Below, piece after piece: positions 978-56,187 of a DNA stretch of 56,187 nucleotides; the first letter of the stretch is position 1; each line of letters starts with the position of its first letter. Both the position numbers and the translations under genes were made by a program. The DNA is taken from NCBI RefSeq assembly GCF_002105155.1, contig NW_019029008.1, positions 434,001 through 490,187 of the forward strand, read 5' to 3'. Below the pieces are notes generated by a model. It saw nothing but the letters and a program-made list of their open reading frames with translations, was not told the DNA's origin and did no database searches. The stretch is from Lobosporangium transversale. Its lineage: Eukaryota.

Positions 978-1207
978 ATGATGAATGCAAAGAGGGTTGG
1001 ATGCTTACTCCTCCCTTATTCTGACCAGCACCTTTACCATTTGCCACGAATATATTTTAGCCGCATATAGTTGCTAGCTCAAACCCAGTATATATTGTAG
1101 CCTTATATAACTTTGGCAAATACCGCTTGCAGCTACGCATTTATTGGGGGAAAACATACTCATGGTCAAATGGCATAGGGCTGGAATGATGAGAAAACGC
1201 GTTCTGA
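978..1207 (+). ncRNA. Putative box C/D-like structured RNA, copy 1 of 3 (most diverged)
   Basis: ATGATGA (978-984), CTGA (1021-1024), ATGATGA (1186-1192), CTGA (1204-1207) in C-D'-C'-D order; internal stems TTTGCCA/TGGCAAA and AATATAT/ATATATT. Confidence 0.5.
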
Positions 1208-1307
1208 GCAAGGGCCACTTGGCTCTTTTATTTTTTTTTATTTTAACTTTTTTATCCTTCAGTTCTCCCCTTATCTTTTATTCTTTAGGACTAGCGTTGG
1301 GCTCTAA

Positions 1308-1536
1308 ATGATGAATACACAGACGGGTAACCCGCAGTTGCCGTCACTCTGACCATAAGCCTCGCCGTTTGCCACGAATATGTTTTAGCCGCATATAATT
1401 GCTAGCTCAAACCCAGTACATATTATAGCCTCATATAACTTTGGCAAATACCGCTTGCAGCTACACAATTACCGGGGAAAAACATACTCGCGACCAAATG
1501 ACATAGGACTGGGGATGATGAGACAATGCATTCTGA
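1308..1536 (+). ncRNA. Putative box C/D-like structured RNA, copy 2 of 3
   Basis: ATGATGA 1308-1314, CTGA 1349-1352, ATGATGA 1515-1521, CTGA 1533-1536; flanking GCTC/GAGC complementarity; stem AATATGT/ACATATT covaries with copy 1. Confidence 0.55.
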
Positions 1537-1600
1537 GCAAGGCCCCACCTGGTTTTTTTTATTTTTTTATTTTCTCTTTTATTATTCTTTTATTATTTAT

Positions 1601-1675
1601 TTTTGTTTTTCTTTTGTTTTTTCTTTTGTTTTTCTTTTGTTTTTCTTTTGTTTTTCTTTTGTTTTTCTTTTGTTT
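1601..1675. repeat. Simple tandem repeat (TTTTGTTTTTC)n in the spacer between RNA-like copies 2 and 3
   Basis: About 6-7 copies of an 11-mer visible directly. Confidence 0.85.
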
Positions 1676-1804
1676 TTTTTTTCTTTTTCTTTTGTTTTTC
1701 TTTTTCTTTTCTTTTCTTTTCTCTCTTTTTTTTCTTTAATTTTATTTTTTATTTTTAAACCCCTTTAACTTTTTCATTCTTTAGGTCTAGCATTGGGCTC
1801 TAAA

Positions 1805-2032
1805 ATGATGAATACCAGACGGATAACCCGCAGTTACCGTCACTCTGACCATAAGCCTCGCTATTTGCCACGAATATGTTTTAGCCGTATATAATTGCTA
1901 GCTCAAACCCAGTACATATTGTAACCTCATATAACTTTGGCAAATACCGCTTGCAGCTACACAATTATCGGGGAAAAACATATTCGCGACCAAATGGCAT
2001 AGGACTGGGGATGATGAGACAATGCATTCTGA
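1805..2032 (+). ncRNA. Putative box C/D-like structured RNA, copy 3 of 3
   Basis: ATGATGA 1805-1811, CTGA 1845-1848, ATGATGA 2011-2017, CTGA 2029-2032; GGCTC upstream pairs with GAGCC at the 3' end; near-identical to copy 2. Confidence 0.55.
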
Positions 2033-3393: not shown

Positions 3394-3521
3394 GTGTCAA
3401 ATAACAGCTTTGAGGATCCTTGTCAATAAAAAAAAGGGTTGTCAAATAACACCGGGCTCAGTGTTGTCAATATTTTACTATTTGACAGCCCGAGTTGTCA
3501 AATAGGTTAATTCCACCCCTT
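3394..3521. repeat. Cluster of six TGTCAA motifs ending in TTAATTCCACCCCT; possible DNA-transposon terminus with subterminal repeats
   Basis: TGTCAA(ATA) five times forward and once inverted (TTGACA) within ~110 bp. Confidence 0.45.
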
Positions 3522-13400: not shown

Positions 13401-14501
13401 CTTACATCTGTATCTTCATCTCCATTCTTTCCTTCTTCCATTCCCTCTTCTCGTTCCTCTTCTTCCACTTCGTCTCCAATCTCATCTAACCATTCCTCCC
13501 CTCGCCCACATCCTGATCGTGTCAATACCCAAGACAGTGACAACGACAAAGCCTCAACAATTGATCCCGAAAGACGAATCTGTCGCGAACCTTGCTGTAT
13601 TCTAACCAAGCCTAACAGTGATATCAATAGTGGTAACAAGACGCTGTCAAGTCCTTTACAGAGACAAAGACAGACAATGCAGCCACAGCTCGACTCGACC
13701 AGTGATGACTATCCTTCCTGGTCATGGAATCGACCTTCGCCTCTGATTCATGCCTCCAACATTAGCAACTATGACGCTACTTCATACCTCCCTGGCGCCG
13801 GTGATGGTGGTGACAGTGATGATGAGTCCAACTCTGATGAAGGCCGTGAACGTAAGAGACGCGAGCTTGAAGAATTGGAACGTGAGCTCATGGTCCTGGG
13901 TCTCCAGGGCTATCAAGATGCGTCTGATGGTTTTGAGCTAGAGGTGCAGCAGGCGCAGCACGCACCACAATTGCCAGGAGCTTCCCCTGCACAACAACAA
14001 CAGCAACAACAACAGCAACAACAACAGCAACAACAGCAACAACAGACAACCGCTGCAGTATCAAAGTCAGTCTCCCAGGCACAGTCGTCTATGCAGCGGC
14101 CATATCAACGCCGACGACAGAATAGCCTTACATACGAGGAGCGCCGTCTTCAACAAGATACCCGCTGGCAACAGCAGATTACCAAACCGATGTCTCCTAC
14201 TTCATATAAGGGTCCAAAGACAATTAATTACCTTGACGGGATTGAATTGGATGAAGACTCTGACGAGAACGAAGACACTGTTGTTCTAGCTGTAGCTCAC
14301 CGAGTCTCTGTCCGTCACCATGCAGACTGGTCCCTGCAGCAGATGGGGGAGCGCCAGCAGGTGGCCTCGTGGGATGTGACCCGAGGTGTTTCCTGGACGC
14401 CCATGCCACGAACTCAACCACAGCTACAGCAGCAACAGAGAAAATTAGCTCCCAAGTACTCTGAGGGACCCATCACTTCGGGTATGATTAGTGCACGCTA
14501 A
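10493..14501 (+). CDS. Hypothetical low-complexity (S/T/Q-rich) protein, ~866 aa; two exons 10493-11761 and 13170-14501
   Basis: ORFs 10493.. and 13158.. join in phase 0 via donor GTAAGC at 11762 and acceptor CAG at 13167-13169 after a long polypyrimidine tract (ETV|AQEYARTIKSLWQMVEDEE); no domain recognised. Confidence 0.7.
10742..10812 (+). repeat. Coding hexamer repeat (TCAGGG)n encoding Ser-Gly
   Basis: About 10 tandem TCAGGG units in frame. Confidence 0.95.
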
Positions 14502-21301: not shown

Positions 21302-21485
21302 GCGGTCTCTCGAGATAGGACGTCAAATCGTTGAGATGCTCTTGTTTGCGAACGTATCGCTGTCTCGAAACATAACTACATCCTCTATCCAGTCAACTAA
21401 ATAAAGTTCAAATACATATGGGAAACTTTTTCTTCAATCTCTTTCTTTTCCGTTTTCCACATATAAACAGCTAGAGTAAACCACC

Positions 21486-41019: not shown

Positions 41020-44000
41020 TCAAGATGGAGTCAAGGCCTTGCTAGGCTTGAACGCCTCCGACAACGTCAGCGCCGTTTCATACCCAATCGAGTTGCCTGT
41101 AAAATTCAAGGAGCTCAAAGTCGTGTTAAACTTCCGTGCCTCCAACAGTGCAAGGGCTCCTTCACTCCCAATGGAGTTTCCTCCCAAGCCCAAAGCAGTC
41201 AACGCCATGTTAGTCTTGAGTGCCTCTGACAGTGAAAAAGCTCCCTCGATTCCAATTGAATTGTGCGCCAACTCCAAAGTCGTCAAGGTTTCGTTTACCT
41301 TGAGTGCCAATGAGAGTGCATAAGCTCCCTCATTTCCAATTGAATTGGATTCCAAGTCCAAAGTGGTCAGAACCGTCTTCGTCTTGAGTGCCTCTGACAG
41401 TGCAAGAGCCCCCTTCTTCTCAATCGAATTACCCTTCAAGTTCAACGTGGCCAAAGTTGTGTTTCTCGCAAGTGCCTCTGACAGCGCGAGAGCTCCTTCA
41501 TCCCCAACTGAATTGCCCTCCAAGCACAAAGCGGTCAAAGCCGTGTTACCCTTGAGCGCATTTGATAATGAAAGAGCTCCCTCCATTCCAATTGAATTGT
41601 ACGCCAATTCTAAAGCGGTCAATGTTGTATTACTCTTGAGTGCCTTTGATAGTGCACGAGCTCCTTCATTGCCAATTGAGTTCCATTTCAACTCTAAAGT
41701 AGTCAAAGCCTTGTTCTCCTTGAGCGCCTCTGACAGTGCCTGAGCTCCTTCCTTCCCAATTGAGTTATCCCACAAGCTCAAAGTAGCCAAAGCCTTGTTG
41801 GTCTTGAGTGCCTTTGATAGTACAAGGGCCCCTTCCTTCCCAATTGAGTTCCATCCTAGATTCAAAGTGGTCAACATAGTGTTTGTCTTGAGCGCCTCTG
41901 ACAGCGCAGCAGCTCTTTCCTTCTCAATCGAGCTGCCTCCCAAATCTAAAGTGATTAAAGCTGGGTTGGTCCCCAGTGAGTTTGCAAACACTTTAAAGTC
42001 ATTAGCTTCCATTAATCCAGGTTTCATCGAAAAAGATAATTTGTGAAGATGCAACGGCCTTTTGGGCTGCAAACTGGAAAGCTTTATAAGGTCCGGGGAT
42101 AGAACAATATGAATCGTCTTCATCTTGCTCAGTCCCATGATCCGAACCAGGGTTTCATACCGCGTGGATATTGGAAGAAATTTCTCGGTAGTGCTTTCTT
42201 GAGACCTTCCGAGATCAAGTCGAAGGATCGATACACTTGACTTCTTTAGTGCTTCCTCGAATGCAACAAGGTCAGCTCTTGTCCACTCCCAGCCGAATGT
42301 AATATCCAACTCGTAAACACGCCTTGCATTAGCTAGCACATTGAAGAATTCTCCAGGTTTGCTTTTGGGATACAGGGCGATAATCACTTTGCCAAGATAC
42401 GGGTCATATTTGCCTCCATTATTTTCCACTGCACCAGCAAACTCTTTCTGTTCTTTTTCTCTATATGTCGAATGATAGTGGTCGAGACAACCCATTTTAC
42501 GTGACCTGTTTCCGTCGTGATCCTGTACAAGTTGCCAAATTCCCTGTCTTCATCCCTTATTCGAAGAAATGTGCCCAGTTGTCGGAGATCTGCCCCTTCG
42601 AGTGCCTCATGCTCATCGATTGTATTGATGTTTTTCAACACCGGGTACTCAATAGAGAGCTTTTCCATGTATTCGATTGAGTAATTGATAGCAGCAGTCA
42701 AGTTTGGGATTGGTGCTAGACAAGCAGCTATGGGCGCTCCCACCCTGAGGCAATGTAAAATGATGAGCATGTGCCTTCCATACTTGCGAAAAAACTTTGT
42801 GCTGTCACGGACTTCATATCCATCATGCTTAGCAAGGTGGATTTGGTTTTGGCTGCTCTTGCTTATCTCCGCAGTGAGCTCTCCGCATTCACAGAGGAAA
42901 TGAAGGCGGAACTTATTTCCCAGGACATTCCTTGGGTCCCACTTGGAGGTGTCGACAGGTAAGATGATAAACAGCCGTGGGATTGGATACTCGTGTAGCT
43001 CAAAGTTTTGGACTAGGATAGCATTGGCATGTTTTTGTAGTGTGGCGAGCTTATCGAGCGCTTTATTTTGCAACTCAAGCATTTGATCGTCTCTATCCTT
43101 AGCCTCCAGTTGCAGTGCAAGTACCATGTCCCCTTTCTCTCTGACCTCTAATTGCAGCTGATGTATTTCCGATTGGAAAGCTAGTATCTTGTCATTTTTT
43201 TCTATGGCCTCTAACTGTAGCTGAAACATATCCGATTGTACTCTACCCATCGCCGATTGCAGTTCAAGCATTTGTCTATCTTTCTCTTCGGCCTCCAATT
43301 GCAGTTGAATCATATCTGATTGATTTATATGTCATATCTGATTGATTTATATGCATCGCCGATTGCCGTCGAAGCATTTCGTCACTCCCCATACTGATGC
43401 CTTGCAGCAGCTCCATAGCCCTTTCTATATTAGAGTTGACCATCTCAGTTCGTCTATTATTGCGCGTAACGAGGGATGAATTGGAAGACCGTGCCAAATA
43501 TGATAATGGTAAATGGTCCTGAGTAGCTAGATTTGTCGATCTTTTTGATCCAGGCAAATGGGTGGCGACGTTGTTGACGCCCTTGCTACTACTGTTGCTG
43601 TTATCATTGTTGTTGCTCTTGCTGTTGCCGTTGCCGTTGCTGGCGCTCTTGCTGTTACCGTGATTGTTGTTGGAAATACGGCCGCCGTTATTATTGTTGC
43701 TATTGCCGCTACCATTGACACCGGTGTCTCTGCTGCTACTACCAGGCTGCAGTCTTTTTGTAACGACATCCAAGGCCTTGTCAGGGTAAAACGCGATGCG
43801 TGGAGGCTCGATCCTAATAGGCGGCCTAAAGAAAGAAAGAAAGAAAACGTGTTAAAATTGAGCTCTCTCTTCTCTTTCTGCCACTCTTAGGGTAATTGAT
43901 AAGGTAAAATAAAGTAGCCAATGGGAAACATTAGTACCTGTTGCATTAGTGTCCAAGAGGAATCGAATGGGGATCCCATCCAATTCGAATCCCGACGCAT

Positions 44001-52312: not shown

Positions 52313-52477
52313 TGTTACGTCCTGAGGCTAGGGAGTGTACCCAAATGGAGCACTCCCCTTTTTATTCATAGATCAGAGCAATTAGTGACGGCTATGTTGG
52401 AGCCTATATAAGGCTCCGACCTAGCTAAAATAATAAACAACTTTTGATCTCCTTGACTTCCGATTTACCATAAAACA
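52313..52477 (+). repeat. 5' LTR (~165 bp) of the Ty3/gypsy element
   Basis: Starts TGTTAC exactly where Crinkler homology breaks, ends AAACA; internal TATATAA (52405) and AATAAA (52432); second LTR is outside the window. Confidence 0.65.
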
Positions 52478-52577
52478 TATCATTTTTTCAAGGATCTACA
52501 TAGAGTTACATCCATCCATTTTATCAATCCATCCAACCATTTTTTTTTTCCATAATTTCAATCCCTTTATTTCAATC

Positions 52578-55500
52578 ATGTCTAATATTAATAAAGTACC
52601 AATTAACGAAGATGTTGATATGGAAATCTCTTCACCAGAGAATGGCTCAGGCTTGACACCTGTCGAGCAGTTGAACTTATTGGTGGCTAGCCTGGTCGTA
52701 GATACGACGGAGAGTGTAGTCGAGTTCGGCAGTGATGCTGTTCCCGATATCGAGAATGTTACGATGCTTCTTCGAAGTTATAGACTTCAGAAGGAGGAGA
52801 CACTCAGAAAGAAGGCATTGCTGTTCCTTAGGTACAATGATGCCAAATCAAAGTTAAGAAAAATTGACATTGATGAAAAGACACTTACCAAGGCCTTAGG
52901 CGATCTCGCTCAACAGAAGGCAGACATCTTGAAGGTCTTAGTAAGACAAACTGAAGACTTGAATAGTTCTATTGAACATATGGAGGAGGTCAGAAATGGC
53001 TTATCTTCAAGCGAGGACGTTTCGATTGATAGATCGAGTGTGTCTGAAGCAGATAGTCACCGTATAACGGTGAAATGGGATCCTGCTAATCCCGAACATG
53101 ACGCACTTCATCGAATCTTCAAAGAAGAGAACATTCCTTTGATGGAAGATTCAGAAGAGGTAGACTATACCAAGGTCAAGAAGAAAACGTTTGCGGATGC
53201 GCCTATGCTTGATTTAGACGTGTCCAAGGTTCCCGGCAAGAATATGGTCAAGGAAATAGCAATCAGGGTTGTCACTTTCCGTGATGACTTTGAGAGGATA
53301 TTCCGTCGTAACCTTTCTGATGTTCTTTTCGACAAACTAGCATGGGATTACTTATCCCTCTGCGTTTCCAAAGTGTCCGGCCTGGCGCGAGACTATGACG
53401 ATCTCATCAAGAAAGTGCCTCTTCAAGACAGGACCTGGTCTCGGGCAGTTACATGCTTGAATAAAGCTCTAAAGTTTGACATTCTAGGGGCTTACATCGC
53501 TGATATGGCGCTAGTTATGAGGCCTGAGAAGAATGACACTATTAGGTCGTTCGCGCAACGATTGCTACCACTGGTTGAGGCAGCTGGAATCCCAGATGAT
53601 GGCTGCTATATGCTCATCAAAGCTTTATGCAATCATCTGTCCGACGTAGGATTTCAGGCTGTCATCAAGGAATTCGGCTCAGTGAAAAGTGTTAGCTCTT
53701 TGAAGGAGTTTCTAGAGTTCCTAGAAAAGACACCAGGTGCCTTAGGTGAGAAACGAACCGATGACGCCCATTGGTTTATCCAGAAGTATGGAGGAGACGC
53801 TGGAGAACAGTATTTGCGATCCATCAAGTCCAGATCGGAATACACTCCTAGAGAGGTTCCGAGATCTAGTCATAAAAGATCTCGACTTAATGCCAATCCG
53901 TCAAGTGATAGAGAAGCCAAGAAGGCTAAACCATTCAAGGTCTGGTGTAAGGGAACGGAGAAGTGTAGGTCGAATCCGTACAAACATGCCCCGGAGGACT
54001 GTCGGTATGCTAAGGATCAAGTCAGAGATCATTCTAAGGATAAGCCCAAGGACGTCAAGAGAACTGATGTGCGCAAGCCGCTTGCCTCAGTCAGTGCTTT
54101 TAAGAGGATTAGTGATAGTGCGCTCATAAGAGACATAATTCCGAATAAAGAATCCTTCTTTTCCTCGTACTCAATTGTTGAGAAAGCTTGTATCAAGCAC
54201 CTAGGGGCTTTCAAAGGTCCCGCTCCTGGTGATAATAGAATAGCTGTGCCTATATTTATAAACGGGCAACAATATACAGCATTGTTAGATCCAGGCGCCA
54301 CAACTTCTTTGCTCAGTAAGGAAGTAGCCATAGAGCAAGGTATTCGCTATGGTCGAGTACCAGGAGAATCTATAGCAATGATAGAAAAAGGGACTAGCAC
54401 GGATAATGCCATTACTTGTGATAAAGTCCAATTGGTCTGCAACAATAGATCTGGAGAATATCAATTGTCGGTCATGGACATTGAGTATTATGACTTCGTG
54501 TTGGGAATGGATCTCTTCGCTAGACTCGGCTTTTCCATCACGGGAATAGCCATGCCGGAGATACGAGAGGAGGAATCCCTATGGGTCCCATATGATGAAA
54601 AACCTCAAGTCATTCCGTCACAAACTCCAGAAAGAGAAAACAATGCTGAATTCAAAGCATTGAAAGAAAAGTTCCTGTTAGCACTGGAGCCTTATTTACA
54701 GGCGAATGAAGCCATCTCGCCAAATTCATTTTGCAATCTTGATACAATGAAGGTCCAGCTAAAGGTTAAACCCACCTGTATCATCCAGGAAAGATCTCGC
54801 CCATTCCATTCGCAAATTGAAAAAGAAGAAGTGGAAAAGACCATCCAGAAGTGGCAAGAAACGGGTGTTATCGTTCCAGCACCTAAGGGGTGTCCGTATA
54901 ATAACTCCCTGACAATGGCAGCACGCCGTGACCTGGATGCTAATATTCTGAAATATAGAGTATGCCTTGATCCAAGAATGTTGAATCGTCAACTAGAGGA
55001 TACTGATGTCTTCCTCTACCATTAATCACTGATATCCAGCAGAGGGTAGCAGGGCATCTGTATTTCACCGCAATTGATCTGTCTCAGGCGTATCATCGCA
55101 TGCCTGTAGAGAAATCAAGCCAACCACTAACTGCATTTACGTACGGTGGTAAGCAATATATGTTTGCTAGAGCACCTTTTGGTTTAAAACCCCTCACGAG
55201 TATCTTCCAAAGAGGAATGTCACAACTCTTAGATGATCTGCACTTTGCTGACAATTATGTGGATGACATTATTGTCTATTCGCACACAGCAGAGGATCAT
55301 ATTCTTCATGTCAGCATTGTCATAGAAAGGCTTACAGCTGCAAAGTTGATAATCAATAGAGAAAAGAGTAAATTCCTTAGTACAGAAGTGCTACTACTGG
55401 GGTTCATAATCAACAAAGAAGGACGCAAAATAGATATCAACAAGGTTGCTAATGTGCATTCATGGACACCACCTACCAATAAGAAGATGGTTCAACGCTA

Positions 55501-56187
55501 TTTAGGCCTCTTCAATTATTTTAGGGAGTATATACCCTTGTACAGCTCGCTCACAGCACCTCTAAGATGCCCTGCGCAATGCCAAAGGCACTTTTGATCT
55601 TAATAAGGAGCAAATGCGAAGCTTTAACAGCATCAGATCGCTTATAGCCCAAGCTCCAGCCTTATCGTTCCCTGATTTTACTCAGCAATTCTTTGTAGCC
55701 ACCAGATGCCTCTAACGTAGGCATAGGAGCTGTCCTATATCAGCTACCGGGTGGCAAGGAAGATGAAACCAAGGTCAACTACATATCCTTTCAAGCCAGA
55801 GCATTGCATAAGCATGAGAAAAATTACCCAGCTTACAAGAAGGAACTCTTAGCAATTATTTTTGCACTAATGAAATTTCACCATTACCTTTGGGGAAGAA
55901 GATTTACATTATATACTGATCACAGACCTCTGACGTACATTCATGAACAGAAGGAGTTGCCACAAATAATCCTGAATTGGAAGGCCACTCTGCTCAACTA
56001 TGATTTTGAATGTATTTATCGTCCAGGCCTGCTGAACATTATTCCAGACGCATTATCTCGCGCATTTCCTGAGGAATTGTGGAAGTCTCCTAAAGAAGAA
56101 CAAGCTACATGTTCTACGAGTCGGCAGATTGCTTCTATGAGGCGAGGAACAGAGACTACCGAGAATGTTCAGGCAGCTCCACAGTTC
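52578..56187 (+). CDS. Gag-Pol polyprotein with three single-base frameshifts (~55013, ~55565, ~55703); partial at 3' end
   Basis: 815-aa ORF followed by RT/RNase H motifs in shifted frames (FPLPLI, PLDALR, ATDAS each restored by a 1-nt correction). Confidence 0.85.

Follow-up and report, generated by a model that had tools for sequence, protein, structure and literature searches.

We found that a unit repeated in tandem at positions 978-2032 is best read as a new family of long, orphan box C/D RNAs that probably do not methylate; its copies are candidate plus-strand genes, and its long internal rod would act as a scaffold or chaperone; judging from the sequence, we put the probability of this reading at about 0.5. 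Here, the window means the whole 56,187-nt stretch of DNA that was analysed, and all positions refer to it. We favored an orphan large C/D family because the boxes are constrained, the geometry fits two kink-turns, no Rfam family matches, and no guide to the stand-in rRNA rises above chance. The earlier note on this DNA had likewise proposed an orphan, unusually large C/D family, and on the boxes, geometry, Rfam and guides that proposal stands; however, the covariation that it described is absent from the predicted fold, and the rod is predicted to be the more stable when read from the minus strand. We regard the three-copy family as a well-supported candidate rather than a discovery.

Three tandem units with four invariant boxes

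The three copies (n = 3) measure 230, 229, and 228 nt (978-1207, 1308-1536, and 1805-2032), as expected from the tandem ~230-nt copies noticed beforehand, and each carries, in order, ATGATGA, CTGA, ATGATGA, and CTGA, with no additional RTGATGA or CTGA inside a copy. The boxes are spaced by 33-36 nt (C-D'), 161-162 nt (D'-C'), and 11 nt (C'-D). On the plus strand, copy 1 comprises box C (978-984), a small hairpin (992-1017), D' (1021-1024), the rod (1025-1185), C' (1186-1192), an 11-nt slot (1193-1203), and D (1204-1207). The same order on the same strand holds for copy 2 (box C 1308-1314, small hairpin 1322-1345, D' 1349-1352, rod 1353-1514, C' 1515-1521, and D 1533-1536) and for copy 3 (box C 1805-1811, small hairpin 1818-1841, D' 1845-1848, rod 1849-2010, C' 2011-2017, and D 2029-2032). 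Two plus-strand blocks within the rod are invariant among the copies, namely a 20-nt block in the 5' arm near the top (1071-1090, 1399-1418, and 1895-1914 in copies 1, 2, and 3) and a 32-nt block spanning the loop and the 3' arm near the rod top (1105-1136, 1433-1464, and 1929-1960); these are the two longest invariant blocks, they lie opposed near the loop, and they are predicted to pair in part with each other.

Identity is 80-81% between copy 1 and each of the other two, and 95% between copies 2 and 3. Variable columns (53/231 overall) are distributed unevenly, with 0/22 in the boxes, 21/36 in the C-D' segment, 29/162 in the D'-C' rod, and 3/11 in the C'-D slot, the last bearing out the observation that the 11-nt segment before D differs between copies. 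The perfect conservation of all four boxes, which had been noted by eye, is unlikely to be accidental (hypergeometric p = 0.002) and indicates that the boxes are under constraint. The four-box layout matched four times in the window and arose in 5/300 block shuffles of it, and a looser box pattern returned the three copies plus one match within an open reading frame at 13702. When a profile built from the three copies was searched through the 56-kb window, neither an extra copy nor an extra rod was found.

The boundaries of similarity largely coincide with the boxes. Upstream of box C, copy 1 is only 47% alike to the others, so that similarity begins at box C, and past box D, copy 3 is 50-56% alike to the others, so that similarity stops just beyond D. 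To this extent the strong divergence claimed for the spacers held; it did not hold for copies 2 and 3 over the upstream 40 nt (79% alike), nor for copies 1 and 2 over the downstream 40 nt (78%). The spacer between copies 2 and 3 is enlarged by a tandem expansion of an 11-nt T-rich repeat (1586-1680).

The flanks contain several elements of the kind found around processed RNAs or introns. A plus-strand hairpin (923-973; -17.2 kcal/mol on the plus vs. -6.1 on the minus strand) is predicted directly 5' of copy 1, and it is possible that it serves as a processing signal. Downstream of the copy 1 box D lie, on the plus strand, a short hairpin, a T-rich tract, and a branch-like motif with AG (1210-1262, the last at 1243-1262); comparable plus-strand elements occur downstream of copy 2 (1539-1556 and 1765-1784), and a branch-like motif with AG follows copy 3 (2105-2125). 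Hosting of the copies in introns is possible, given the branch-like motif and AG after each copy, but a strong donor is missing directly before copies 2 and 3.

The stretch is wholly or partly present in six DNA sequencing runs from four studies. In two of the runs (two studies), copy 3 is intact in several contig pieces, and contigs of the same runs also show the junction between copies 1 and 2 (both among the best 20 of 57 pieces, none covering the whole stretch). A further copy-1-like variant, either an extra copy or an allele, is present in these two runs; by eye, its small C-D' hairpin appears to survive, since each change is in the loop, lies beyond the stem, or displaces a bulge by one base. 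A palindrome in the D slot, considered as a conserved feature, is lost in this variant and was discarded. The 20 substitution rows and one insertion row listed from four runs include none within a box. We rejected one run as a divergent strain: G>A and C>T account for 7/7 of the changes listed for it, and where its contigs end loosely they read as copy 3 with T in place of each C. It behaves like a bisulfite-type library and carries no covariation information. Judged from that bisulfite-type run alone, with no methylated control, this hints that the DNA of the locus is unmethylated. No RNA run was among those listed as containing the stretch, and one run that may be of RNA gave 0 contigs at copy 3; neither result bears on expression.

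No homologue was found beyond the source organism in a metagenome scan with one pattern (the 11-nt core followed by C' and D); it returned 22 loci, of which 0/22 had C and D' upstream and none was homologous. Pattern scans of viral contigs gave no match or chance matches only (for the boxes-only pattern, among the matches listed). The case for the RNA consequently rests on the paralogues.

The remainder of the window is varied. Upstream of copy 1, the interval 524-910 may be the first intron of a non-coding host transcript, since it combines strong donor-like sites (524, 533, and 538) with T tracts and, near 910, an AG. At 3395-3501, six TGTCAA/TTGACA motifs occur within ~100 bases (58 across the window) together with a 13-nt inverted repeat (3436-3448/3479-3491), possibly a factor-binding array or the end of an element. 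Broken open reading frames at 21480-22053 and 27763-28194 resemble, by eye, pieces of a Tc1/mariner-type transposase, and at 52437-56187 a long open reading frame is followed by frame-shifted pieces in which, again by eye, a fungal LTR retrotransposon can be made out from its protease, reverse transcriptase, and RNase H. A C-5 cytosine methyltransferase gene (24660-26854, minus strand; Pfam DNA_methylase) is Dnmt2-like by eye, and a minus-strand open reading frame with a long leucine-rich repeat run (41020-43331), preceded by a coiled-coil open reading frame, resembles by eye a fungal NLR-like gene. The window also encodes an Rds1-family protein (0.97 vs. eukaryotic clusters), by which the DNA is recognisable as fungal, and further Pfam domains (synoviolin, Rpn13, and muniscin).

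The predicted fold and the strand of the rod

The C-D' segment is predicted to form a small hairpin in 3/3 copies despite its differing sequence (21/36 columns variable), as had been proposed, and this hairpin is maintained through two two-sided changes; two-sided changes are confined to the short hairpins, mainly to this one. Positions -12 to -4 before D' are predicted to be nearly all paired in 3/3 copies, and because the hairpin leaves only 3 nt free ahead of D', we predict that no guide is accessible there. The D slot is predicted to be mostly unpaired. As read from the sequence, D' and C' come together through a short stem and a bulge; the stem, of 2-4 bp, adjoins D' and ends 1 nt ahead of C'. 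The geometry of C'/D' fits a kink-turn, and that of the whole unit would fit two.

The D'-C' domain is predicted to fold as one long rod with D' and C' at its foot. The claim that this domain covaries did not survive: none of the 52 plus-strand rod pairs is changed on both sides (0/52), and the minus strand is likewise free of two-sided changes. The specific replacement of AATATAT/ATATATT in copy 1 by AATATGT/ACATATT in copies 2 and 3 is real, but its interpretation as compensatory had to be given up, with a helix pairing probability of 0.000 in 3/3 copies and its one double change reached by 165/500 shuffles. We also dropped, as structural evidence, the tendency of variable sites to avoid paired positions (p = 0.03), since many of the 'unpaired' sites are A.C mismatches in register.

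The missing compensation raises the possibility that the rod is a passenger, i.e. that the locus is a decaying or untranscribed DNA repeat in which an ordinary small snoRNA gene acquired a fold-back sequence between D' and C' before it was duplicated. The unit minus its rod would be ~70 nt, the size of a small fungal snoRNA, the rod substitutions are uncompensated and mostly transitions (25 transitions vs. 4 transversions), and the plus-strand rod of copy 2, the weakest of the three, folds no better than shuffles, unlike those of copies 1 and 3 (z about -3.5, -0.8, and -2.9 for copies 1, 2, and 3; -3.5, -0.6, and -2.6 in a second run). Against this, the rod is better conserved than the C-D' segment (18% vs. 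58% variable) and includes the invariant runs of 20 and 32 nt, the window holds no other copy of it, the rod-less remnant has no guide on the stand-in rRNA described below, and no terminal inverted repeat lies at the unit ends among the best 25 of 33 inverted repeats. We consider a passenger rod very doubtful.

A more substantial difficulty for a plus-strand RNA is that the minus-strand rod is the more stable in 3/3 copies (z of -6.0, -3.3, and -3.8). The minus-strand rod has 60 pairs, of which 6-11 are G.U, and its longest helix is 15 bp in all copies vs. 7, 8, and 12 bp on the plus strand. Read antisense, the rod of copy 1 (1025-1185, minus strand) is predicted to form a more continuous hairpin and is a candidate antisense hairpin transcript; a fold-back of milRNA type with a near-perfect duplex of ~20 bp is predicted on the minus strand and is weaker on the plus strand. 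When the palindrome is read in register, 19 pairs vary: 13 show A.C on the plus and G.U on the minus strand, 5 show the reverse, and 1 is of another kind; 13 one-sided changes are kept on the minus strand vs. 4 in the plus-strand consensus; and a strand-neutral alignment of arm to arm gives 16 A.C vs. 3 G.U on the plus strand, although the copies are not independent.

These observations would suit a rod that is a small-RNA precursor, either as a minus-strand hairpin across a snoRNA-like gene or as a Dicer substrate within a C/D RNA, with the opposed 20- and 32-nt blocks forming the duplex. The asymmetry is nevertheless modest by independent events (13 vs. 5 of 18 transition-type variable pairs, p = 0.096), a strand energy gap equal to that of the rod (at least 11 kcal/mol) is reached in 32/150 random windows, and the two strands fold alike once G.U pairs are excluded. 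Moreover, a minus-only reading leaves the four perfect, invariant boxes unaccounted for, the copies have no match among Rfam miRNA families, and the fungal milRNA hairpins that have good support are short in the available text of PMC9757828. A small-RNA precursor is on balance unlikely.

All features beyond the rod favor the plus strand, comprising the boxes, 5/6 of the short hairpins outside the rod (more stable on the plus strand), the T tracts, and the branch-like motif with AG after each copy. We prefer to resolve the strand conflict in favor of a C/D RNA made from the plus strand, whose rod is interrupted. We also considered editing of the A.C mismatches. A combined model seems to us quite improbable; in it, a long box C/D RNP would come from the plus strand, and the rod, either read from the minus strand or excised from the C/D RNA, would double as a Dicer-type hairpin in which the 20- and 32-nt invariant blocks form the small-RNA duplex. 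Such use of both strands, if true, would be surprising, and the tandem cluster would then be a fungal locus that links a snoRNP scaffold with the making of small RNAs from a hairpin.

Guide potential and a proposed mode of action

We searched for targets in stand-in 18S, 5.8S, and LSU rRNA of ascomycete type rather than in the rRNA of the source organism; the stand-in was drawn from eukaryotic (fungal) rDNA contigs that contaminate several bacterial genome records, lacks ~10 LSU bases at a contig join, and includes no ETS. Under the D+5 rule, all six D and D' slots (6/6) were matched by 40-99 of 100 shuffles against this stand-in rRNA, in keeping with the failure to find a convincing rRNA guide by eye. 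On the stand-in rRNA, then, the copies appear to offer no antisense element of 10-21 nt before D or D' that obeys D+5, as a canonical rRNA methylation guide would. We set aside a copy-1 D' duplex with the stand-in rRNA (50/100 shuffles equal), an 11-bp helix of an invariant block with the stand-in 18S near 942 (77/200 shuffles equal), a 9-bp helix with the stand-in LSU, and acetylation pairings at 18S helices 34 and 45, which are short or rich in G.U and whose 5' guide is not common to the copies.

The open D slot could still direct methylation elsewhere. By this account, the 11-nt slot would guide methylation of a tRNA, of a spliceosomal RNA, or of an rRNA site peculiar to the lineage, and the rod would serve localisation, as the hairpins of vertebrate C/D scaRNAs do. 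In addition to being mostly unpaired, the slot varies at three positions, two of which (A/G and C/T changes) would be tolerable by G.U pairing to one target; guides of 7-8 bp can be functional, according to the available text of PMC5464676; and mgU2-47 and U90 join C/D boxes to long apical hairpins (PMC4041459, in its available part). Yet the best D-slot duplexes with the stand-in rRNA are of 6-8 bp and are equalled by 81-99 of 100 shuffles, and the rods of 3/3 copies are free of a GU/UG repeat, a GU/UG wobble stem, a CAB motif, and a fly CAB-like motif. We know of nothing in the conserved U1, U2, U4, U5, and U6 sequence that fits the D+5 rule. The D slot is also more variable than the rod, whereas a functioning guide is usually the most conserved part of its RNA. 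A methylation guide is unlikely.

We return to the long orphan C/D RNA, which is likely to be a guide-less scaffold if the candidate RNA is made. Long C/D RNAs that lack a methylation guide have repeatedly been found in other roles, such as pre-rRNA chaperoning and cytidine acetylation. We reasoned that each tandem unit, as a candidate plus-strand gene, could yield a product that assembles the usual snoRNP proteins and probably does not serve ordinary rRNA methylation. By analogy with established C/D biology, Snu13 would sit on both motifs, a longer precursor would be trimmed by exonucleases, and the ends would be protected by Nop56/58 and Nop1. The small hairpin is predicted to close the D' guide slot, while the D slot would be open, short, and different among the copies. 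The working surface would be the rod, chiefly the 20- and 32-nt blocks that do not vary; like the long non-methylating C/D RNAs, it would chaperone other RNA or offer a scaffold to which proteins bind, and the A.C mismatches of the rod may keep its plus-strand helices short.

Relation to known RNA families

The copies share the hallmarks of the box C/D class, with boxes C (RUGAUGA) and D (CUGA) terminal and C'/D' internal, perfect in 3/3 copies. The Rfam scan proposed in the earlier note (Rfam 15, gathering threshold), which took in U3, U14, snR190, snR4, snR45, SRP, and miRNA families among others, gave 0 matches across the window, and the best sub-threshold score at the copies (E = 0.28) covers boxes and T tract only. 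We rejected U3, telomerase RNA, and SRP, for which there is no Rfam score and no 5' domain or template, as well as a composite C/D-H/ACA scaRNA of the U85 type: H-like and ACA motifs are present, but a forced H/ACA fold is 11-16 kcal/mol worse and neither of its hairpins is better than shuffles. The literature searched, which lay outside the CD_53 family alignments in the supplements of PMC5824354, yielded no published description of the three-copy family.

Canonical fungal C/D methylation guides share with our units the order C, D', C', D, and commonly occur in tandem clusters and in non-coding hosts (PMC2780460, available text). Unlike the units, 90% of fungal box C/D RNAs are 80-135 nt long and their C'/D' boxes are usually degenerate, as given in the available part of the fungal survey (PMC5824354); here the unit is of 230 nt, the D' slot is predicted to be shut, and rRNA duplexes are at chance level.

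The vertebrate C/D scaRNAs mgU2-47 (189 nt) and U90 (330 nt) resemble the units in joining a C/D core to a long apical hairpin, but, within the accessible text of PMC4041459, they have a conserved snRNA guide and require a GU/UG wobble stem at the hairpin tip, which is missing here.

Another structural parallel is offered by snR4, snR45, and SNORD13, in which a long, helical D'-C' bridge occurs without a conventional methylation guide (PMC5464676 and PMC9226516, in the parts available), as with the predicted 161-162-nt rod; in snR4 and snR45 the bridge makes up the bulk of the RNA and the guide is bipartite (PMC5464676). These RNAs depend on two guides that flank a CCG of 18S helix 34 or 45, one conserved and placed 5' of box C, the other in a loop after C'. 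Our units differ in that the sequence before box C is not common to all copies, only 11 nt separate C' and D, and D' is canonical, and the three-copy RNA, as its sequence reads, does not fit the SNORD13 role. As far as the available text of PMC9226516 reaches, no SNORD13 counterpart was found in fungi outside the budding yeasts.

Among the closest counterparts is the Nc CD53 family, which is likewise fungal, intergenic, orphan, and of similar size (PMC2780460 and PMC5824354, available parts), so that orphan long C/D RNAs of such size are already known in fungi. In Neurospora crassa, Nc CD53 is a 212-nt intergenic orphan (PMC2780460), and in the Pezizomycotina the family (Nc_CD_53) spans 200-300 nt (PMC5824354). 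By eye, short 5' and 3' parts of the published Nc CD53 sequence likewise enclose a large closed domain, and near the foot of that domain one 8-mer is in common with copy 1, as many as chance would give. Unlike the single rod and the four perfect boxes described here, the domain of Nc CD53 appears by eye to be multi-branched, with hairpins of UUCG type, and its internal boxes are non-canonical. Since the available part of the fungal survey, a homology-driven one, gives this still-orphan family as its sole exception in size (PMC5824354), a new multi-copy family with four perfect boxes would address a concrete gap.
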